Source: an uncultured Methanosarcinales archaeon | GTDB lineage: Archaea; Nanobdellota; Nanobdellia; Woesearchaeales; DSVV01 | Length of the DNA stretch: 64,000 nt | Assembly (NCBI GenBank): GCA_964556185.1 | Contig: CAZKVI010000003.1 | Coordinates: 2,089 to 66,088, forward strand | Direction: 5' to 3' | Part shown: piece by piece, positions 29,237-63,631 of the stretch | Position numbering within the stretch: position 1 is the stretch's first letter | Layout: each line of letters starts with the position of its first letter | The notes under the pieces: model-generated | What the model saw: the letters and a program-made list of their open reading frames with translations, nothing else | What the model was told of the DNA's origin: nothing | The model's database searches: none | Made by a program: the position numbers and the translations under genes

Positions 29237-29356
29237 CGGGCCCACGGGGATTCGAACCCCGGGCCTATGGCTGTCTGTGCGTAAGCAAAGACCCAGTGGA
29301 TCTTTGATCCTAACGCGTAAGAGGCCACCGCTCTAACCAGGCTGAGCTATGAGCCC
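29237..29356 (-). tRNA. tRNA-Lys(CUU) with about 45-nt intron after position 37
   Basis: Manual fold: GGGCTCA/TGGGCCC acceptor, GCTC/GAGC D-stem, GTGGC/GCCAT anticodon stem, loop CU-CUU-A, T-arm CGGGG-TTCGAAT-CCCCG, discriminator G. Confidence 0.7.
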
Positions 29357-29485: not shown

Positions 29486-30367
29486 TTATCCTTGATAAAA
29501 ACCAATTAACTGTCTTTGTCTCTTAACATGTCTTAATTTTCTTAAGGCTTTTACTTCGATTTGTCTTATTCTTTCTCTTGTTAAATCAAATACTTGACCA
29601 ATCTCTTCAAGAGAATAATGACGAGGATGATCAATTCCATATCTCATTTTCATAACTTTTTCTTCTCTGGGTGTTAATTCAGCAAGTACACTTCTAACAG
29701 CCTTTGCTAAATCAGAATCCCCTACATTTTCATCAGGTCTTCGAACACTAGCTCCTTCTATAAAATCACCTATGGTTGCATCTGATTCATCACCAACTTT
29801 TTGCTCTAATGATAATGGTTCTCTTGCAAGCCTATAAATATCTTCAATTTTTTCAACTGGTTCACCTAACCAATCTGCAATTTCTTCAGAAGTTGGTTCT
29901 CTACCAAGATCAGTAACAAGTTTTCGAGCCGTTCTTCTAACTTTAGTAACCATTTCTAATTTATAAATTGGAATTCTTATTGTTCTTACTGTAGCTTCTA
30001 TTCCTCTAATAACACTTTGTCTAATCCACCAAGAAGCATATGTAGAAAATTTATATCCTCTTCTATATTCAAATTTTTCAACAGCTCTTATTAAACCTAA
30101 ATTACCTTCTTGAATTAAATCACCAAGTGGCAAGCCTCTATATTGGTATTGTCTTGCAATACTAACAACTAGTCTTAAATTGCCTTTTATTAAATCTTCT
30201 TTAGCTGTAGCTGCTTCATAAGGAGTGCCTTCTTCCATTGTTGTAGCTAATCTAACTTCATCATCTCTAGATAATAATGCTACAGCCCCCATTTGATTCA
30301 TATACTTCCTTAGAACTCTAGGATCATCTCTATATCTTGGCCCACCTTGATAATGACTAACACCCAT
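29486..30367 (-). CDS. bacterial-type RNA polymerase sigma-70 family factor (regions 1.2, 2, 3, 4)
   Basis: Region 1.2 [28 protein letters not shown]. Region 2 [58 protein letters not shown]. Region 4 [15 protein letters not shown]...[29 protein letters not shown]. Confidence 0.8.
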
Positions 30368-48649: not shown

Positions 48650-48763
48650 CGCTGTGGCCCGGATTTGAACCGGGATATCCCGGAGGAAACAAGCTAAACA
48701 GTGCATGCCTTGAAAATACATACATTTCCAGGCTTGCGCAGTACCAGGTTGTGCCACCACAGC
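48650..48763 (-). tRNA. tRNA-Ser(GGA) with about 30-nt anticodon-loop intron and long variable arm
   Basis: Acceptor GCTGTGG/CCACAGC, anticodon stem CAAGC/GCTTG, loop CU-GGA-A, T-arm CCCGG-TTCAAAT-CCGGG, discriminator G. Confidence 0.55.
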
Positions 48764-48772
48764 AAAAAAAGG

Positions 48773-48897
48773 TGGCAGTGGCGGGATCTGAACCCGCGGC
48801 TTCTAGATCGCCCAGATATAAAGTTTAATCATCGGCATGAGCCTCATCACTCAAATCTTATGAGTCTAGCACTCTAACCAGGCTGAGTTACACTGCC
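48773..48897 (-). tRNA. tRNA-Met/Ile2(CAU), elongator type, with 50-nt intron
   Basis: Acceptor GGCAGTG/CACTGCC, D-stem ACTC/GAGT, anticodon stem CTAGA/TCTAG, loop CU-CAU-AA, T-arm GCGGG-TTCAGAT-CCCGC. Intron contains GUGAUGA. Confidence 0.7.
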
Positions 48898-55389: not shown

Positions 55390-57348
55390 ATGAAAAACAA
55401 ACTTATTCTTATAATTTGTATCTCAATCTTTTTAATAATTCCATTATTTTCCACAATATCTTTTGCACAAGCTGGCCATTTAAAATTATTAGCAGTAACT
55501 TCTGAGACTAAAGGTGTAGAAGCAAACCTTGATTTAAGACTAATGCCAGGTACTGGAAGTGTTTTTATTGCAACATCTCCTTTAACAAAAATAGATACAC
55601 AATTATCTACAAGATTTGCTAAAGATATTGCATGCAAATTCCTCGAGAAGGATTGTTCAAATTTAGATTTCTTTTATACAATAACAAGTAATGCATCTAT
55701 TGTTGGTGGCCCAAGTGCAGGTGCAGCAATAAGTGCTTTAACAATAGCCTTACTTGAGGGCTATGAATTAGATGAAAGCTTTACAATAACAGGAACAATT
55801 AATTCAGGTGGTCTAGTCGGAAGTGTAGGTGGCTTAAAACCTAAAATAGAAATTGCTTCAAAAATTGGAGTAAAGAAAGTTTTAATACCTGCAGGAGAAA
55901 GATTTATCATAAATGAAACAATTATTTCTTTAAACACCACTGGATCAAATGCAACATTAAATTCATCAATCAATAATATTAACAATACAAACACTAATAA
56001 TAACACAACAAACACCAATTCAACACTTACTGCAACTATAAACAATACAATTGATTTATACGAATTTGGTAAAGAATTTGGAATAGAAGTAAAAGAAGTT
56101 GCAAATTTATATGATGTTATGTATGAATTTACAAATATAACTTATGAACAACTCTCAGGAGAAATCACACCAGATGATTGGTATATTGAAACAATGAGAA
56201 ATATTTCTAATGATCTTTGCGAAAGAAGCAATAACTTACAAAATGAACTTACTACACCTGAAAACACATCTAGTGATTACTTGTTTTACTCAACAGGATT
56301 AAATTTAACACAAAATGCAGAATCTGCATTATCTGAACAAGATTATTACTCAGCAGCATCATTTTGTTTTGGAGCAGCAGGTAAATTTGGTTATTTATTT
56401 CTAAAAAAACAAAATATGACAAACAATGAAACCTTAATAATACTTAATGAAACAAATGGTTCTATTGATTCAATAAGACAAAAAATAAACAATATTAATT
56501 TACAAACAATCACAGATATTCAAACTTATGTTATTGTAAATGAAAGATTAAAAGAAGCAGAGAACACATTAACTCTTGTTAATGATGCTCTTCAAGAATA
56601 TATTAATATGACTTTAACTTTAACAAATGCTAATATAACAGAAACAAATAACACAAAACAACAACTTGAACAAGTTCATGATATACTTTTACAAAAATTA
56701 GCTTATTCAATAGAAAGATTAAATAGTGCAGTTGCCTGGAGTAGCTTTTTCAATAAACCAGGTTCTACTTTTAACTTTAGCCCAGAATCTATTCATCAAT
56801 CATGTATAATAAAACAAAAAGAAGTAGAAGAAAGAATAAACTATATTCAAATTATTACTCTATTAGGTTTAGAAGGTGTAAAACAAGGTTTAGATGATGC
56901 AAAACAAGAAGAAAAAAGAGGTAATTTTATTCTTTGTCTTTTCAAAGCATCTAAAGCAAAAGCAGAAGCAGATACTGTAATGAGTATGATTGGAGCTAAA
57001 GAAGACTCAATTCAAGGTATTATTGATACAAGATTAACATTAGCTACAGATGTTATACTAAAACAACAACGCCAAGCTAGTTTCCCAATATTTGGTTATA
57101 GTTATTATGAATATGCAAAGACATTACAAATTGATGATCCTAGTTCTGCTTTGATATATTCTCATTATGCTCTTGAATTAAGTAACCTTGATATGTACTT
57201 TGAAAAAGAGCTTGATTTAGCTACTTTAGATACAGAGCTAACTAAAGATCCTGGCAATACATTCTATTTTATAATTGGATTTATTCTAGGAATATTAGTA
57301 ACAATACTCTATGTAATGAATTTTAAACCAAAGAAATCAAAAAAGTAA
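55390..57348 (+). CDS. secreted Lon-like (S16) peptidase-domain protein with Asn/Thr-rich linker and C-terminal TM anchor
   Basis: Signal peptide; GGPSAGAAISALTIALL (Lon catalytic Ser motif) ... IGVKKVLIPAGE; N-x-S/T-rich region; C-terminal FYFIIGFILGILVTILYV. Confidence 0.55.
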   Translation: MKNKLILIICISIFLIIPLFSTISFAQAGHLKLLAVTSETKGVEANLDLRLMPGTGSVFIATSPLTKIDTQLSTRFAKDIACKFLEKDCSNLDFFYTITSNASIVGGPSAGAAISALTIALLEGYELDESFTITGTINSGGLVGSVGGLKPKIEIASKIGVKKVLIPAGERFIINETIISLNTTGSNATLNSSINNINNTNTNNNTTNTNSTLTATINNTIDLYEFGKEFGIEVKEVANLYDVMYEFTNITYEQLSGEITPDDWYIETMRNISNDLCERSNNLQNELTTPENTSSDYLFYSTGLNLTQNAESALSEQDYYSAASFCFGAAGKFGYLFLKKQNMTNNETLIILNETNGSIDSIRQKINNINLQTITDIQTYVIVNERLKEAENTLTLVNDALQEYINMTLTLTNANITETNNTKQQLEQVHDILLQKLAYSIERLNSAVAWSSFFNKPGSTFNFSPESIHQSCIIKQKEVEERINYIQIITLLGLEGVKQGLDDAKQEEKRGNFILCLFKASKAKAEADTVMSMIGAKEDSIQGIIDTRLTLATDVILKQQRQASFPIFGYSYYEYAKTLQIDDPSSALIYSHYALELSNLDMYFEKELDLATLDTELTKDPGNTFYFIIGFILGILVTILYVMNFKPKKSKK

Positions 57349-57658: not shown

Positions 57659-58192
57659 ATGGCCACTGGTAAGAATGTCGACAGAAGTTTATTACAAGTT
57701 GTACGTTATAGGGGTATTTTTGATATAGAAGCAGTCTATAAAGCTGTATATGATTGGTTGAGATCAAGAGGTATGGAAGTCCAAGAAACAAAATTCAAGA
57801 CATATGATAGGGCATATGGAAGAGAACATCAAATTAAATGGAGTGCTTGGAATAATGAAACTGACTTTGTAAAAAATTGGATATTTATCACATGGAGATT
57901 TATTGATGTTGTAGAATTAGAAGTAGTTAAAGATGGAAAAAAGAAAAAGTTAAGTAAATGTCAAGCAGATATTAGAATTCAACACGCAATGGAGTTTGAT
58001 TATAGTGAACGTTTTACAAAAACAGTGTACCAAATCCGCGCATTGGAATTTATTACAGGTTGGTTATTTAGAAAAAAGATAGATACTTTATGGGAAGATA
58101 AGTTAAGGTTTAAATGTTATGAATTGCAAAATGTTGTAAAAGAAACATTAGAAGCTCAAACAAAAGGTAATGAGCATTATGATGTATGGTAA
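57659..58192 (+). CDS. hypothetical protein, tandem paralogue A
   Basis: Shares VYDWLRSRG / VVKDGKKKKLSK motifs with 58215..58715. Confidence 0.4.
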   Translation: MATGKNVDRSLLQVVRYRGIFDIEAVYKAVYDWLRSRGMEVQETKFKTYDRAYGREHQIKWSAWNNETDFVKNWIFITWRFIDVVELEVVKDGKKKKLSKCQADIRIQHAMEFDYSERFTKTVYQIRALEFITGWLFRKKIDTLWEDKLRFKCYELQNVVKETLEAQTKGNEHYDVW

Positions 58193-58214: not shown

Positions 58215-58715
58215 ATGGTCGAGAGAAGAATTGTTGTAGATACAATGAGGATGCATTACCAAGGTCTTCTTAATGTAGTTGAATTTATGGAATTTGTAGA
58301 TCGTTGGCTTCGTGAAAAAGGTTATTATAAAAAAATTGGCAGAACAGATGAAAAAGTTTTCAAAGAAAACAGACAAGTAGAAATTGAATGGGAACCTTGG
58401 AAAAAAGTTGATGAAAATGCAAAAATAGTTATTCAAATGAAATTCTTATTCACAAATGTAAAAGATGTTGTTGTAGAAAAAGACGGAATGAAGAAAAAAC
58501 TTCAACAAGCCAAGATCTCAGTTACAATGATGGGACTTATGGAATCAGACTGGGAACACAAATGGGAAAAAAGACCTTTTTACTTCTTATTCTTCTCAGT
58601 TATTGATCAGTTTGTCTGGAAAATTCATTCTGATAAGTACTTTGGTTTAGTAGCAGAAGACTGCACAGAACTAAGAAACGAAATGAAAGCTTTCTTGAAT
58701 TTGTATAGGTTCTGA
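58215..58715 (+). CDS. hypothetical protein, tandem paralogue B
   Basis: FVDRWLREKGYY / VVEKDGMKKKLQQ align to paralogue A. Confidence 0.4.
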   Translation: MVERRIVVDTMRMHYQGLLNVVEFMEFVDRWLREKGYYKKIGRTDEKVFKENRQVEIEWEPWKKVDENAKIVIQMKFLFTNVKDVVVEKDGMKKKLQQAKISVTMMGLMESDWEHKWEKRPFYFLFFSVIDQFVWKIHSDKYFGLVAEDCTELRNEMKAFLNLYRF

Positions 58716-58772: not shown

Positions 58773-58938
58773 TGTGGGGGTAGCCCGTAAGAAGATTCTT
58801 TGGGTTCCCTAGAGCAAAGTCTGGTCAAATGCGCAGGACTTAAGATACACTGAAGACAGCCTTCACGGCAAAGTCTTTGTTTTGAATTAGACATCCTGTC
58901 ACTTAGTGTGTTCGGGGGTTCGAATCCCCTCCCCCACA
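58773..58938 (+). tRNA. tRNA-Leu(UAA)-like gene with two introns (about 29 nt near the D-arm and about 48 nt in the anticodon loop)
   Basis: Acceptor GTGGGGG/CCCCCAC. AGTCTGGTCAAATGCGCAGGACTTAAGA matches the archaeal Leu D-loop and anticodon arm; TCCTG is found 48 nt on; long variable arm; T-arm GGGGG-TTCGAAT-CCCCT; discriminator A. 166 nt = about 87 mature + 78 intron. Confidence 0.5.
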
Positions 58939-59036
58939 TTTTATTCTTTATTTTCTATTTTATGTGCGTACTGCTTTGCAAAGCAAATGCAGTACTCGCT
59001 GACTTTTTCCCAAGTTTTTACGAACGTAAAAAGCTG

Positions 59037-59058
59037 GTGGGGATCATCCTCCCCCACA
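59037..59058 (+). repeat. degenerate duplicate of the tRNA-Leu 3' end (ggtggggATCATcctcccccaca), separated from the tRNA by two strong hairpins (58968..58995, 59015..59032)
   Basis: Compare the tRNA 3' end gggggTTCGAATcccctcccccaca. Hairpins GTACTGCTTTGC-AAA-GCAAATGCAGTAC and TTTTTACG-AA-CGTAAAAA. Confidence 0.55.
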
Positions 59059-59083
59059 TTTTCTTTTTGATTTTGATTAAGAA

Positions 59084-60844
59084 TTAAGGTTCAGTTGGTT
59101 CATCTAGTGATGCACTTGTTTCTAAGCCACTTCTTCTTAAACCTTTAAGAGTATAAGTTGGATCTTCAAGATAACTCTCACACTGTGCTTTAATTCCAAG
59201 AGCAGCCATAAGCATTTTATCTTTATCATCGTAAATTTCTCTAATAGAATCTCTATCTTTCATTGTTCTTGGATTAAATACTTCTGATAAAATTCCATCA
59301 AAAGAAAATTCATCTGCTGATTCAGATTGTTCTGTTACTTCACCAAATCCTCCTTTTGCTTTATAAGTTTCATAAAGCCTATGGATTTTATAAACTTTAT
59401 AATGGCTTAAGGAAGAAGAATCACTTGTATGGTAAGAACACAAATGATCAATTATTTGGTTTGTTTCTTCTAAAGTTTTTCTTACTAATACAAAGTTTTG
59501 AACATCTGGAATTTCACGACCTTCTTCGGCTTTCCATCTTCTGTAAGCATTTACAAGAATAACATTTTTGTATAATCTGTATAATCTTTCAAATCCTGCA
59601 TAATATTTTGTTCCTTTTCTAACATTTATTATTGGGTGTTTTTCAGCTAATGCATTTGCTCTTTCCTTTAATTGAGTTCTTATATCTCTTGTCCCATGTA
59701 AATCTTGTCCACTATATGCTGCAATAATTTCATCATAAGTTATTTCTTCAATTGACTCACCATCATCAGTTAATCTTTTTCTTTTCTTACTTCCATGTTC
59801 TCGTCTGCGAATTTCATCAGTATTTGCATGACAATCTGCAAACTTAACCATTATAGCTCTTTCTATATCTTCTTCTTTTATTGCTCTCTCTTTTCCTCCC
59901 CAACAAATTATTCCATCCCAGTCACTAGGTCTAAATATTTTGTTTACAGAATCATAATAATTTTGTTTAGTCCCCTTTGTCAAAAGATAACTAGTAACAG
60001 CAACTCCTCCAATCATTTCAACCATTGTACTATCAATAGCACCACCAAGGTCTTTCATGTAATTTTCTAAACAATTATAAATCCCATGATCGACAAAAAT
60101 ATCAGCTACTCTTTCCCCTTTTGTCATTAATTTACCTCTAACTTCAGATTTCTCTGAGAAACCATGTTTTCTTATTTCATCCCTCTTTTCTTGGATAAAT
60201 TTCTTCTTCTCAATAATTTCTTCTTCAACTCCCTCTAGTTCTTCCATTCTTTCTGCAACCTTTGCTTTATAACCATCTCTTCTTTTCCCTTCTAATTGTT
60301 TAATACTTCTTGTTAAGAAACCATGTCTTTCTATCAATCCACCAAGTTCTTCATGTTCAGCCATATTATAAATTCTAACAGTGTCTCTGATATAATGATC
60401 AATAAATTCTTCAGCAGTATCATGATATAATGCTGCAATAATTGTTGTAAGATCAGTAACACCAGCTTTGATGAGTGTTCTTGTAACTCTTAGTGGATGT
60501 TGTACAAAAGGTGCTCCTGTTAATTTTCTATCTGGTGCAATTCTATATTTCTCAAAACTATCATACAATGCAACTTTTAAGAATGTTTGTTCATCATCTT
60601 CTAAAGCAGAATAAGCTTCTTCTTGACCTCTATAAAGCATTCCAACAACGCTTTCGAGTTTTTCTTCTTTGTCTTTAAAATCAACTTTAAAGCTATCATC
60701 AGAATCTTTGTTTGTAAAGAAAGCAACCATTCCATGATCTATTCGACTTAAATAAAGCTCATTTCTTCCAATAAGCCTTTCAAGATTTACATGGCCACTA
60801 TGTGGACTTGGACTAACACCCATCTTCTCTTCAAATAATCTCAA
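59084..60844 (-). CDS. HD-domain phosphohydrolase related to the RelA/SpoT (p)ppGpp hydrolase domain, with N- and C-terminal extensions
   Basis: PFVQHPLRVTRTLIKAGVTDLTTIIAALYHDTAEE matches the Rel/SpoT HD signature HPL..A..L......D..T..AALLHD..ED. Confidence 0.6.
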   Translation of the reverse strand: MRLFEEKMGVSPSPHSGHVNLERLIGRNELYLSRIDHGMVAFFTNKDSDDSFKVDFKDKEEKLESVVGMLYRGQEEAYSALEDDEQTFLKVALYDSFEKYRIAPDRKLTGAPFVQHPLRVTRTLIKAGVTDLTTIIAALYHDTAEEFIDHYIRDTVRIYNMAEHEELGGLIERHGFLTRSIKQLEGKRRDGYKAKVAERMEELEGVEEEIIEKKKFIQEKRDEIRKHGFSEKSEVRGKLMTKGERVADIFVDHGIYNCLENYMKDLGGAIDSTMVEMIGGVAVTSYLLTKGTKQNYYDSVNKIFRPSDWDGIICWGGKERAIKEEDIERAIMVKFADCHANTDEIRRREHGSKKRKRLTDDGESIEEITYDEIIAAYSGQDLHGTRDIRTQLKERANALAEKHPIINVRKGTKYYAGFERLYRLYKNVILVNAYRRWKAEEGREIPDVQNFVLVRKTLEETNQIIDHLCSYHTSDSSSLSHYKVYKIHRLYETYKAKGGFGEVTEQSESADEFSFDGILSEVFNPRTMKDRDSIREIYDDKDKMLMAALGIKAQCESYLEDPTYTLKGLRRSGLETSASLDEPTEP

Positions 60845-60893: not shown

Positions 60894-61373
60894 TTAAGCA
60901 ATATTCCACATGTCATCGCCTACATGGTGGATATTCTCAATGACTTTCCCAGAATTCATTCCTAACATTTCCTCAGAATTAAACAAAACCTTACCAATTG
61001 CCAGAGCTTTTCCATGTGTTTCATCAACAATAACTACAAACTCACCAACTTTAATTCCTTCATCAATCTTTGTAATACCTGGTCTCATAATGTCTGCACC
61101 AGATGTTACAAACTTTATTGCACCCATATCAACTGTAATATTTTTCAATAACTCTAAATTGTCCATAACCAATTTCAAACAAGGAATTAAAACATCATCT
61201 TGAAAAAAGAAATACAACTTTTGATTTACAAAAACTAAATTATTTTCTTTCTCAACTTTATCTTTTTTACTTAGAAAGTTCTCTTTTCCATACAATTCAA
61301 AAATCTTAGAATTCAATTCTTTAATTTCTGACTTATTAAGCTGTTTCCTCATAAGGTACAACCTCAATCTCAA
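60894..61373 (-). CDS. PUA-domain RNA-binding protein
   Basis: MGAIKFVTSGADIMRPGI ... VVIVDETHGKALAIGKV. Confidence 0.6.
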   Translation of the reverse strand: MRLRLYLMRKQLNKSEIKELNSKIFELYGKENFLSKKDKVEKENNLVFVNQKLYFFFQDDVLIPCLKLVMDNLELLKNITVDMGAIKFVTSGADIMRPGITKIDEGIKVGEFVVIVDETHGKALAIGKVLFNSEEMLGMNSGKVIENIHHVGDDMWNIA

Positions 61374-61746
61374 TTTTCATCTTATGATCTTTTGCTTTTT
61401 CTCTAAATTCATCAGAAAAATCTATAGAAGCTTTGTTTGTATTAAATGCAAGTGTTCTATTATCTAAGAAATCAGATTTTCTAACAACAAATTCATGATC
61501 ATCGTCGTAAAACTCATTATATTCTGCAATTACTTCTTCAACAACATCATCTGCAGTAATTTTAATTAATAATTTTCCACCATTACCAACTTTCTCACCA
61601 ACTTTTTGCAATTCTTTCTTATCAAAAGTTGATTTAATTCCACAAATACAATTACCTTTCCATGTTACAAAATCATCTTTTGTAAATTCAAAAGTAGTTT
61701 CGTGGTTAGCTCTAATTTCTCTATGTCCATATGCAAAGAATTTCAT
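61336..61746 (-). CDS. hypothetical protein
   Basis: 136-aa ORF overlapping the start of the PUA gene. Confidence 0.35.
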   Translation of the reverse strand: MKFFAYGHREIRANHETTFEFTKDDFVTWKGNCICGIKSTFDKKELQKVGEKVGNGGKLLIKITADDVVEEVIAEYNEFYDDDHEFVVRKSDFLDNRTLAFNTNKASIDFSDEFREKAKDHKMKIEIEVVPYEETA

Positions 61747-62167: not shown

Positions 62168-63631
62168 ATGAAACATGGAGTTTTGGGTAGTCTAGCTGGA
62201 TTAGTATCAATCTTATTCACAGCTCTAGCTCCAGGCAATGCAGGAGCGATTTCTCCTGACTTAAGAAAACAATTAGCAAGTGAAGAAGATAGACAAGAGC
62301 AAGTTGAATACACTCCAGATGTTTCTCAATTACAAATTGGTTTGTCAAGAGATGTTTCAACTTTAGAAGGTTGTTTAGATATTGAAGGAGAAGTTCTTCC
62401 TTGGAATGTTTATCATAAATTCAAACATAGAGATAATTTAGGCCAAGAATTAATTGCATATGCTCAAAACATTGATTCATTAACAACACAAGGAAATGAA
62501 CCAGAACAATTTGAGTTATTATTAAATGGATTACAAATTTATGCTCAGAATTTAGCTATTATTGGAAATGCACCAGAGGATCCACAAAAAGAACGACAAC
62601 TATTAGAAGATATAACACAAGCTAGAACTACTTTACAAGATTATAACACACAACAATCACATCTGGCCAATAATGATTCAATACTTCAACAATATGTAAA
62701 TAATCTAGATCAAAGTTCACTAAATCAAAGACAACAAACTCAATTATTCCAAAGACTTTTTACTTTGGATGATAAGCCACAATTACAAACACAAATTGCA
62801 ACAATTCTTAAACAAAGTTTTGAAAACATGCCAGGAGATAAGATTGGAATTATTGGTACAAATGATATTCCTTATGCAATTGCTGACAACAGAGTTGCTC
62901 AACTTTCTATTTTAGGAGTAGATATTCAAGATACAAATAGAAAACTCTTAAGATCAGGACCAGTTAGAGCTATTGACAGAGAATTAAATCCTGTTGATGG
63001 TTTTTATTTATTAAATGCTGAAAGATTAGCTCATTATGGAATTAATCCAGATGATACAATAACAATAGAAGGTGAAACAGGACTTGTTTATGCAACTGGT
63101 GATACAACTACAACTGACTTTTTATTTAGTTTATATGAACAACTCCCAATAAATCCAACACAACAACAAAGACTTTTAGTTAATTACATGTTCTCAGATA
63201 TTGATCCAGATAATATTTCTGGTCAAGTAACTCAACCTAGAAACAGAGGAAAATCTGTTGTTTTTTCATTTGTTCCAATGTTAGACACAACTGTTGAAGT
63301 TTTACATCCATCTTCTCAAAAATATTCAACAACAACACTTTATATATCTCCAGAAATGGAACAAGGTGTAGAAGATTATAAATTACCTGCATGGGGAGTT
63401 TCTCCTATTGATTTACAACAAATACAATCTTCTTTAGATCAATATGATCAAGCTTTTGCAGACTATGTAAGAGCAAATCTTCCTGAACTTGAACAGAGTG
63501 CAAGAGAACAAGCAGAAGCTTTTTCTAGAATGATTACACCATATCTACAAATAGCTAGTAATCCAGCTCTAGAATATACTATTGATGCAAATAGCTCTCA
63601 AGAACCAAATGAACACCTACCAATAGAATAA
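62168..63631 (+). CDS. secreted Gln/Asn-rich protein
   Basis: Signal peptide MKHGVLGSLAGLVSILFTALAPGNAGA. Lys-poor. Confidence 0.4.
   Translation: MKHGVLGSLAGLVSILFTALAPGNAGAISPDLRKQLASEEDRQEQVEYTPDVSQLQIGLSRDVSTLEGCLDIEGEVLPWNVYHKFKHRDNLGQELIAYAQNIDSLTTQGNEPEQFELLLNGLQIYAQNLAIIGNAPEDPQKERQLLEDITQARTTLQDYNTQQSHLANNDSILQQYVNNLDQSSLNQRQQTQLFQRLFTLDDKPQLQTQIATILKQSFENMPGDKIGIIGTNDIPYAIADNRVAQLSILGVDIQDTNRKLLRSGPVRAIDRELNPVDGFYLLNAERLAHYGINPDDTITIEGETGLVYATGDTTTTDFLFSLYEQLPINPTQQQRLLVNYMFSDIDPDNISGQVTQPRNRGKSVVFSFVPMLDTTVEVLHPSSQKYSTTTLYISPEMEQGVEDYKLPAWGVSPIDLQQIQSSLDQYDQAFADYVRANLPELEQSAREQAEAFSRMITPYLQIASNPALEYTIDANSSQEPNEHLPIE

Follow-up and report, generated by a model that had tools for sequence, protein, structure and literature searches.

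The window analysed here, a 64,000-nucleotide stretch of contig CAZKVI010000003.1 (assembly GCA_964556185.1), carries on its minus strand, at 59084..60844, a gene for an HD-family protein. Sequence comparison and structure prediction together make it reasonably probable, in our judgement, that the encoded protein belongs to the RelA/SpoT homologue (RSH) hydrolase fold as a very divergent, catalytically competent member whose closest solved relatives are MESH1 and the bacterial small alarmone hydrolases (SAHs). A MESH1/SAH-like fold, conservation of the metal ligands and of RSH residues, and purifying selection on the core are established by the analysis. A first-pass annotation of the window had proposed a RelA/SpoT-type HD domain at this position, and that proposal is borne out by profile matches in the PDB that fall exclusively on RSH structures, and by the presence of Rel-specific residues.

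The residues typical of RSH hydrolases are retained throughout the family. In an alignment of 21 family sequences (A1) which are 22-31 % identical to the query, Y100, R106, H116, H141, D142, E145, Y296, Y297, K334, D337, N341, K426, G517 and G568 are invariant, and E146 is kept in at least 90 % of sequences (numbering follows the 586-codon open reading frame (ORF) that opens at TTG 60844). The metal-ligand tetrad H116, H141, D142 and D337 is thus invariant in A1, and we take its counterpart in MESH1 to be H35, H61, D62 and D122. What sets RSH domains apart from generic HD domains is an Arg ahead of the first His, an acidic pair (E-D) that follows HD by three residues, and an Asn placed four residues beyond the final Asp. 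All six RSH hydrolase motifs are present (R106, H116, H141-D142, E145-E146, D337 and N341), arranged as R-K...G-G-P-Y-x-x-H-P (HD1, HD2), H-D-x-x-E-E (HD3, HD4) and K-F-A-D-x-x-x-N (HD5, HD6), by definitions based on the Rel(Seq) and MESH1 structures and on Atkinson 2011. Among near-full-length members, individual motifs are retained in 53 to 58 of 59 sequences, those with the metal ligands in 54 to 58 and KxxDxxxN in 58 of 59.

Profile and fold comparisons lead to the same family of structures. All 19 matches of the A1 profile in the PDB are RSH hydrolase domains, among them RelA (8fr8, E 5.4e-12), Rel (5xnx, E 2.8e-11), MESH1 (3nr1, E 6.2e-11), SpoT (7qpr) and the SAHs 7p1y, 7qoe and 7qoc; the single protein alone matched human MESH1 3nr1 at E 5e-5. 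In the HMMER alignment of the second conserved stretch, the family consensus 'rAiivKfaDrlaNte' aligned to 'RvlviKvADRLHNMrt' of Rel. An AlphaFold2 model built on A1 (predicted local distance difference test score (pLDDT) 78.4, predicted template modelling score (pTM) 0.81) gives a fold superposable on nearly all of MESH1, and both profile similarity and the closest fold similarity lie with solved RSH hydrolases, not with other HD families.

Family databases register this likeness faintly. The hidden Markov model (HMM) search suggested in the first-pass annotation gave consistent matches to HD_4 and to TIGR00691 (spoT_relA), but for the single protein both remain below threshold (HD_4 20.4 bits over residues 102-147, where gathering requires 27.2; TIGR00691 23 bits). 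At E <= 0.01, HD_4 is the commonest Pfam match among the A1 members (10/21, best E 3.1e-5), as compared with 4/21 for generic HD; a newer precomputed Pfam run labels the 252-aa fragment P0003 as HD_4 (PF13328.13), and PHROGs offered generic 'phosphohydrolase' matches only, on residues 102-146. A Csm6 HEPN match (E 0.088) and a GHD match were dismissed as noise. One could argue from the uniformly sub-threshold Pfam scores, and from the weak PF01966 match seen here (17.1 bits) and in those four members, that the protein is a generic HD-superfamily phosphohydrolase (a nucleotidase, a dNTPase or a cyclic-nucleotide phosphodiesterase-like enzyme) with a superficial likeness to Rel/SpoT. Yet the RSH-specific Arg (HD1), E-[ED] pair (HD4) and D-x3-N (HD5/6) are invariant or nearly so, and the best matches are RSH domains in every one of the 19 PDB cases; judged on these sequence features, a generic enzyme is very improbable and has already been largely refuted.

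The 586-codon ORF in the program's ORF list, and the motif quoted for it in the first-pass annotation, HPLRVTRTLIKAGVTDLTTIIAALYHDTAEE (residues 116-146), are both real. The true gene is probably 59084-60823, starting at ATG 60823 and encoding 579 aa, because the NCBI product for this sequence has 579 aa, because the orthologue in the sister strain L019, a close relative of the window organism, is alignable from M8 on, and because an A/T-rich TTTAAATATT box lies about 30 nt 5' of this ATG. The protein had also been described as Lys-poor, which is mistaken: Lys makes up 8.2 % of its residues, and the median over the 32 window ORFs of 200 aa or longer is 8.0 %. In G+C content, at 0.315-0.325, the region of the gene is no different from the background of the window.

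The HD domain had been placed as a single block, preceded by about 100 and followed by about 400 residues without an assigned function, whereas it is in fact split, with its closing motifs at residues 334-341, about 190 residues past HDTAEE, so that some 80 residues at the N-terminus and some 180 at the C-terminus fall outside the domain. Ahead of it lies an N-terminal region (residues 8-82; 60599..60823, minus strand, as are all parts of this gene) that is weakly conserved in A1 and partly modelled with low confidence (pLDDT < 50 for residues 1-34). The first half of the HD domain (residues 83-146; 60407..60598) aligns to Rel, RelA and MESH1 and bears Y100, R106-K107 (HD1), H116-P117 (HD2), H141-D142 (HD3) and E145-E146 (HD4). 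An insertion of about 125 aa follows (residues 147-270; 60035..60406), delimited by secondary structure and pLDDT in the model; it is K/E/R-rich, varies in length across the family, and is predicted to form an antiparallel helical hairpin (helices 143-185 and 191-226) and then a low-confidence linker. The hairpin comprises about 80 residues and is placed directly after the HDxxEE helix. The second half of the domain (residues 271-345; 59810..60034) bears LLTK..NYYDS, with its invariant Y296-Y297, and KFADCHAN (residues 334-341, HD5/HD6; DNA 59822-59845), in which K334, D337 and N341 are invariant, and which aligns to 'KvADRLHNM' of Rel and to small SAH-like proteins. From HDxxE[ED] to KxxDxxxN the spacing is 193 residues in the window protein and 65-252 across the family, with the canonical 65-77 confined to a bacterial-type subgroup of about 380 aa and 90-252 in the other members. 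When the C-terminal half of the domain was compared by hhalign with small SAH-like proteins and with MESH1, just the LLT[KR]...KxxDxxxN region aligned, and the C-terminal end of the HD fold is therefore set only to between about residue 345 and residue 441.

Beyond a variable middle region (residues 346-404; 59633..59809), which has a pLDDT dip at 348-360 and ends in a conserved H403-P404, the protein closes in a family-specific helical module (residues 405-586; 59087..59632) with the motifs RLYxxYKN..L.N.YR, HLCSYH, GGF.EVT, FDGI...F, LY..K..M..AL and G568. Modelled alone, this C-module of about 170-180 residues is predicted with good confidence (pLDDT 84.9, pTM 0.83) as six helices and a short beta element, and a local HMM found it in 68 library proteins, always at the C-terminus. 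It has no sequence relative in the PDB, no relative by fold and no recognised RNA-binding fold, and neither Pfam nor NCBIfam holds a model of it; a word-indexed database search with its profile found nothing, and a degenerate DNA pattern for FDG...FFD gave chance matches only, in viral contigs. Synthetase (RelA_SpoT), TGS and ACT domains were likewise not detectable in the protein with Pfam or NCBIfam. The parts of no assigned relation are accordingly the roughly 75 N-terminal residues, the hairpin insertion and the C-module.

Comparison with L019 shows how unevenly these parts evolve. The gene is less well kept than its flanks: its product is 75 % identical in L019 (73 % by tblastn) with dN/dS, the ratio of nonsynonymous to synonymous change, at 0.36, while the flanking genes stand at 92-98 % (DUF371 96 %, dN/dS 0.10; PUA 92 %, 0.15; p166 97.6 %, 0.10; p177 98.3 %, 0.05), and dN is 0.152 against 0.007-0.046 in these four neighbours. 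Within the protein, the catalytic N-half is the most constrained part (92 % identity, omega, as we call dN/dS for protein segments, 0.16), followed by the C-module (86 %, 0.23) and the N-terminal region 8-82 (77 %, 0.43); hairpin, linker and middle region are at 51-62 % identity and omega 0.30-0.59, the insertion 147-270 accounting for 51-57 % and the middle region 346-404 for 62 % (omega 0.59). This profile is that of a functional enzyme whose surface appendages evolve fast, and is unlike that of a decaying gene. These rates bear also on the idea of a pseudo-hydrolase, in which an RSH-type HD fold would serve a structural or regulatory role in the manner of the inactive HD domain of RelA. Such a role might explain the fast overall evolution, the D-to-E change in the catalytic acidic pair and the large non-catalytic additions; nevertheless, it is the motif-bearing N-half which is most constrained, no metal ligand or RSH-specific residue varies among sequences that share only 22-31 % identity, and HDxxEE and HDxxED occur side by side within the family (second acidic residue E in 32/54 members, D in 22/54). 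We accordingly give the pseudo-hydrolase very little credence.

Relatives are few and far apart. An exhaustive HMMER search over 1.84 billion cluster representatives returned 72 relatives of the window protein at E <= 1e-3 and 12 at E <= 1e-30, the full-length ones spanning 430-730 aa, and nearly all of the family's clusters are singletons, from which we conclude that the family is rare and deeply divergent. A word-indexed homologue search with the single protein returned the protein itself only, and with A1 the protein and one fragment. The scans of genomes and metagenomes used a six-sequence alignment, A4, since A1 and two further alignments (A2, A3) were too divergent and A4 alone was usable, and these scans therefore sample mainly one subgroup. 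All named archaeal members (P0022, P0032, L008 and L009) are labelled 'Candidatus Woesearchaeota archaeon', and the subgroup of about 380 aa includes a protein from a Deltaproteobacteria metagenome-assembled genome (MAG), annotated as 'HD domain-containing protein' only. The window itself is archaeal, encoding IleRS, L1, L10/P0, Rpb7, aEF-2, aEF-1alpha, TFIIE-alpha, TrmB and Dus, and bearing intron-containing tRNAs. Two observations on individual members may be recorded here. Residues 157-210 of P0022 (MFH1439084.1), in the hairpin region, weakly resemble the DALR anticodon-binding domain (E 0.0022; 18.5 bits, below the cut-off of 22.3), a match given by this one sequence only. At 6766-9044 of L009 (Woesearchaeota MAG JACPND010000036), a PF01663 gene (type I phosphodiesterase/nucleotide pyrophosphatase) is overlapped at its stop codon by a gene for a 384-aa HD_4-like protein, after which comes a PIN-domain gene; the 384-aa protein matched the family in its HD part only.

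In the window, the neighbours of the HD gene are a PUA gene, a DUF371 gene, a tRNA-Leu gene and small ORFs without a known family. The PUA gene (60894..61373, minus strand; DUF1947 and PUA by Pfam, MCT-1/Tma20-like) lies upstream and co-directional, 49 nt from the ORF, and overlaps by 38 nt the DUF371 gene (61336..61746, minus strand; Pfam E 5.6e-26; PDB relatives 7y7n and 3cbn) which heads this co-directional cluster; the HD gene is probably co-transcribed with both. The one-strand order DUF371, PUA, HD-family gene is found in four loci, namely the window, L019, L010/L011 (P0004, GCA_964452935.1) and L014 (P0032, GCA_016205905.1). In L017 and L021 DUF371 is immediately upstream of the HD gene and PUA is not between them, so that the link with DUF371 is tighter than that with PUA, and in L008 an Na/Ca exchanger gene on the opposite strand separates the HD gene from DUF371, about 1.1 kb upstream. 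The order DUF371(-PUA)-HD thus occurs in six of the seven independent Woesearchaeota lineages for which the upstream flank extends to 1 kb or more. In the seventh, L016, a class-I aminoacyl-tRNA synthetase (aaRS) gene stands right after the HD gene and a PUA gene 4.8 kb downstream, and the 166-aa ORF before that PUA gene is not detectably DUF371. The bacterial members have no common gene context. Between lineages, the HD proteins share 23-33 % identity, PUA 46-54 % and DUF371 35-36 %.

Because gene order recurs at so low an identity of the HD proteins, and because signs of mobility or defence are lacking, the sequence comparisons indicate that the gene is inherited vertically in Woesearchaeota, and recent acquisition is unsupported. 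PADLOC (PADLOC-DB) gave no match at E <= 1, tblastn against 72,556 plasmids and 50,697 phage records none, and the BFVD viral structures none at E <= 0.001; no small alarmone synthetase (SAS) or toxin gene adjoins the HD gene at the window, L010, L012, L014, L015 or L016. The first-pass annotation had hinted at an acquired gene, a suggestion which sits poorly with an order conserved across lineages 23-33 % identical and with a background G+C content. A recently acquired mobile, defence or counter-defence gene, for instance a phage-type SAH or a toxSAS antitoxin, might still be argued from the faster evolution of the HD gene than of its flanks and from its position next to a tRNA-Leu gene, where about 105 nt that L019 lacks appear as an insertion between copies of a 15-nt direct repeat taken from the tRNA 3' end; SAHs are also common in phages and prophages (PMC7229694), and RelA/SpoT genes of DPANN archaea have been deemed bacterial in origin (Li et al., 2021; PMC8407392). 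The insertion on the tRNA side, however, lies outside the HD gene, and with gene order, base composition and all the searches above speaking the other way, recent acquisition strikes us as highly unlikely.

By analogy with the chemistry of Rel, SpoT, MESH1 and SAHs, the protein is predicted to be a Mn2+-dependent hydrolase which would take a 3'-pyrophosphate, or a 3'/2'-phosphate, off a ribonucleotide; (p)ppGpp, pGpp and (p)ppApp would be the default substrate candidates. To our knowledge, RSH hydrolases are the only dedicated enzymes that erase (p)ppGpp and (p)ppApp. In the model, the hairpin leaves the helix bearing the catalytic acidic pair, next to the active site, and may therefore be placed to gate or extend the substrate site; hairpin and C-module together might serve to dock, or to respond to, a partner protein or a macromolecular substrate in a regulatory way.

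Several points weigh against reading the gene as a competent RSH-type hydrolase. No member among those scanned reaches the HD_4 gathering score of 27.2 bits, the long insertion breaking the alignment. E replaces D at the second acidic position in most of the 54 members compared. The AlphaFold2 model lends its support at the level of the fold, above that of active-site residue geometry. Among the window ORFs of 177 aa or more, over the 64 kb covered, none contained a synthetase domain, and no cognate alarmone source is known for the source organism. MESH1 also acts on NADPH, and some SAHs on (p)ppApp; as the fold accommodates these and, in some SAHs, pyrophosphorylated tRNA, fold membership by itself leaves the substrate unfixed.

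It is conceivable, with a smaller but appreciable likelihood, that fold and chemistry are as proposed and the substrate is a macromolecule or a cofactor, such as a 3'-pyrophosphorylated tRNA CCA end, on which SAH antitoxins act in undoing the work of toxSAS, or NADPH, on which metazoan MESH1 acts, with hairpin and C-module acting as an arm that docks on RNA or the ribosome. Additions of this size next to the active site would be superfluous in an SAH for small molecules, an RNA-binding PUA protein (MCT-1/Tma20-like) is linked in three lineages and lies, with a class-I aaRS gene, in the vicinity in L016, and both the missing synthetase in the window and the weak DALR match in the hairpin of P0022 (E 0.002, below cut-off) can be read in the same direction; action of an SAH on pyrophosphorylated tRNA is described in a preprint (bioRxiv 10.1101/2021.04.30.441581). 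On the other side, L017 and L021 have DUF371 next to the HD gene without PUA, which makes DUF371 and not the RNA-binding protein the more tightly linked neighbour, the DALR match is sub-threshold and comes from a single sequence, and the C-module shows no recognised RNA-binding fold.

A more speculative extension, which we consider unlikely, joins the competent RSH-type hydrolase to its neighbours, with DUF371-(PUA)-HD as a module, not recognised before, by which Woesearchaeota would process phospho-nucleotides or RNA ends. The DUF371 fold, a duplicated beta-barrel bearing a conserved His, is one that ECOD groups with GutA-like phosphotransferase system (PTS) IIA phosphocarriers (PMC4256011); this likeness may serve as a lead only. 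DUF371 would generate or present a phosphorylated substrate, and the enlarged RSH hydrolase, guided by hairpin and C-module, would strip the 3'-(pyro)phosphate from a target linked to translation, such as tRNA or another RNA 3' end. If so, the module would represent an alarmone-independent use of RSH, or else point to an archaeal alarmone-like signal with a non-RSH synthetase. As MESH1 shows, the fold can take unexpected substrates in organisms that make no alarmone. More broadly, the family offers a testable entry to the roles of archaeal RSH hydrolases, which might include the clearing of alarmones that come from bacterial neighbours or toxins, NADPH-type metabolism, and RNA-end repair. It also exposes an annotation gap, in that Pfam and NCBIfam thresholds miss the family, and routine annotation sees neither the C-module nor the second half of the HD domain.

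Other features of the window deserve brief mention. An unannotated tRNA-Leu(UAA) with two introns lies at 58774-58938 (plus strand), one of 51 nt that follows the anticodon loop and the other, an insertion of about 31 nt, separating the 5' acceptor strand from the D-arm and lacking in the orthologous tRNA-Leu of L019; it was missed by ARAGORN and scores 18.7 bits with the Rfam tRNA model, against a gathering score of 29. Its 3' end is repeated exactly, as the 15-nt direct repeat CCTCCCCCACATTTT, at 58928-58942 and 59048-59062 (plus strand; 0.07 matches expected by chance), and the two copies bracket the segment of about 105 nt between tRNA-Leu and the stop codon of the HD gene, which has the look of a minor insertion, or of what is left of an element that integrated into the 3' end of the tRNA gene. 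Rfam, but not ARAGORN, also recognised three more tRNA genes on the minus strand (29237-29356, 48650-48763 and 48773-48897), which measure 114-125 nt and presumably contain introns. A complete bacterial-type sigma-70 factor of 293 aa (29486-30367, minus strand), with regions 1.2, 2, 3 and 4 at E 2e-8 to 3e-21, is encoded on this otherwise archaeal contig. Adjacent paralogous ORFs of 177 and 166 aa (57659-58192 and 58215-58715, plus strand), without a Pfam, PADLOC or PHROG family, are 98 % identical in L019 and recur as three tandem copies in L010 (52 % identity), again beside a Lon_C-like gene. In the window that gene (55390-57348, plus strand) encodes 652 aa, in which a hydrophobic segment at the N-terminus is followed by a Lon protease C-terminal (S16) domain, limited to residues 105-171; a long low-complexity stretch rich in Asn and Thr and a transmembrane segment at the C-terminus are also present, and the protein is 43 % identical in L010. 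Finally, a 487-aa ORF at 62168-63631 (plus strand), with a signal-peptide-like N-terminus and no Pfam match, evolves fast compared with its neighbours (81 % identity and dN/dS 0.48 against L019).

An RSH hydrolase gene in a Woesearchaeote is not in itself new, as such homologues have been reported before: sporadic single-domain SAHs are known from archaea (Natronomonas, Methanococcoides and Methanosarcina; Atkinson et al., 2011; PMC3153485), and RelA/SpoT homologues, of presumed bacterial origin, from 41.7 % of Woesearchaeota genomes (Li et al., 2021; PMC8407392). The premise of the first-pass annotation that alarmone genes are unexpected here does not hold in the light of these surveys. In the literature that we found, what is not described is the HD domain split by a variable hairpin and joined to the C-module, its sub-threshold status in family databases, the linkage with DUF371 and the fast evolution.

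Like MESH1/HDDC3 and the bacterial SAHs (PaSAH 6z3n, RelH 7qoc, TdActApo2 7p1y and the Leptospira SAH 7qoe), the window protein bears the same six motifs and is a stand-alone hydrolase without a synthetase domain. It differs from them in being about three times larger, in the hairpin and linker of about 125 residues that split the domain, in an additional C-module of about 180 residues, in EE instead of ED, and in missing the HD_4 gathering score. SAHs are defined as hydrolase domains only, of about 140-220 aa (Atkinson 2011; Jimmy 2020), and are described as single-domain RSHs in 11 subfamilies (Jimmy et al., 2020; PMC7229694); at 579-586 aa and with extra modules, the window protein lies outside that definition. 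The long RSHs (Rel, SpoT and RelA) provide the best profile matches, their 'KxADRxxN' aligns, and both they and the window protein are multidomain with the hydrolase first, but synthetase (PF04607), TGS and ACT/RRM are without a match here, and the all-helical C-module is unrelated in sequence and fold. Aph1 (7smg) and the SAH antitoxins of toxSAS pairs (ATfaRel; PMC7229694) demonstrate that the fold can act on adenosine alarmones and reverse the products of toxins, yet the window protein differs from them in size and extra modules, and no toxSAS or toxin gene adjoins it at the loci examined. The bacterial proteins of about 380 aa (for example MBM4353686.1, Deltaproteobacteria; 24 clusters at 50 % identity) share the two-part architecture of HD domain and C-module but have 65-77 residues from HDxxED to KLADRLDN, ED in place of EE, no long hairpin and no DUF371/PUA context. 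The protein is a member of the RSH hydrolase fold and neither a 'small' alarmone hydrolase nor a long RSH; its family appears as a rare branch of RSH hydrolases, deeply divergent and equipped with an integral helical arm and a new C-terminal domain, which is passed on vertically among DPANN archaea that depend on hosts and is tied to one conserved neighbour, DUF371.

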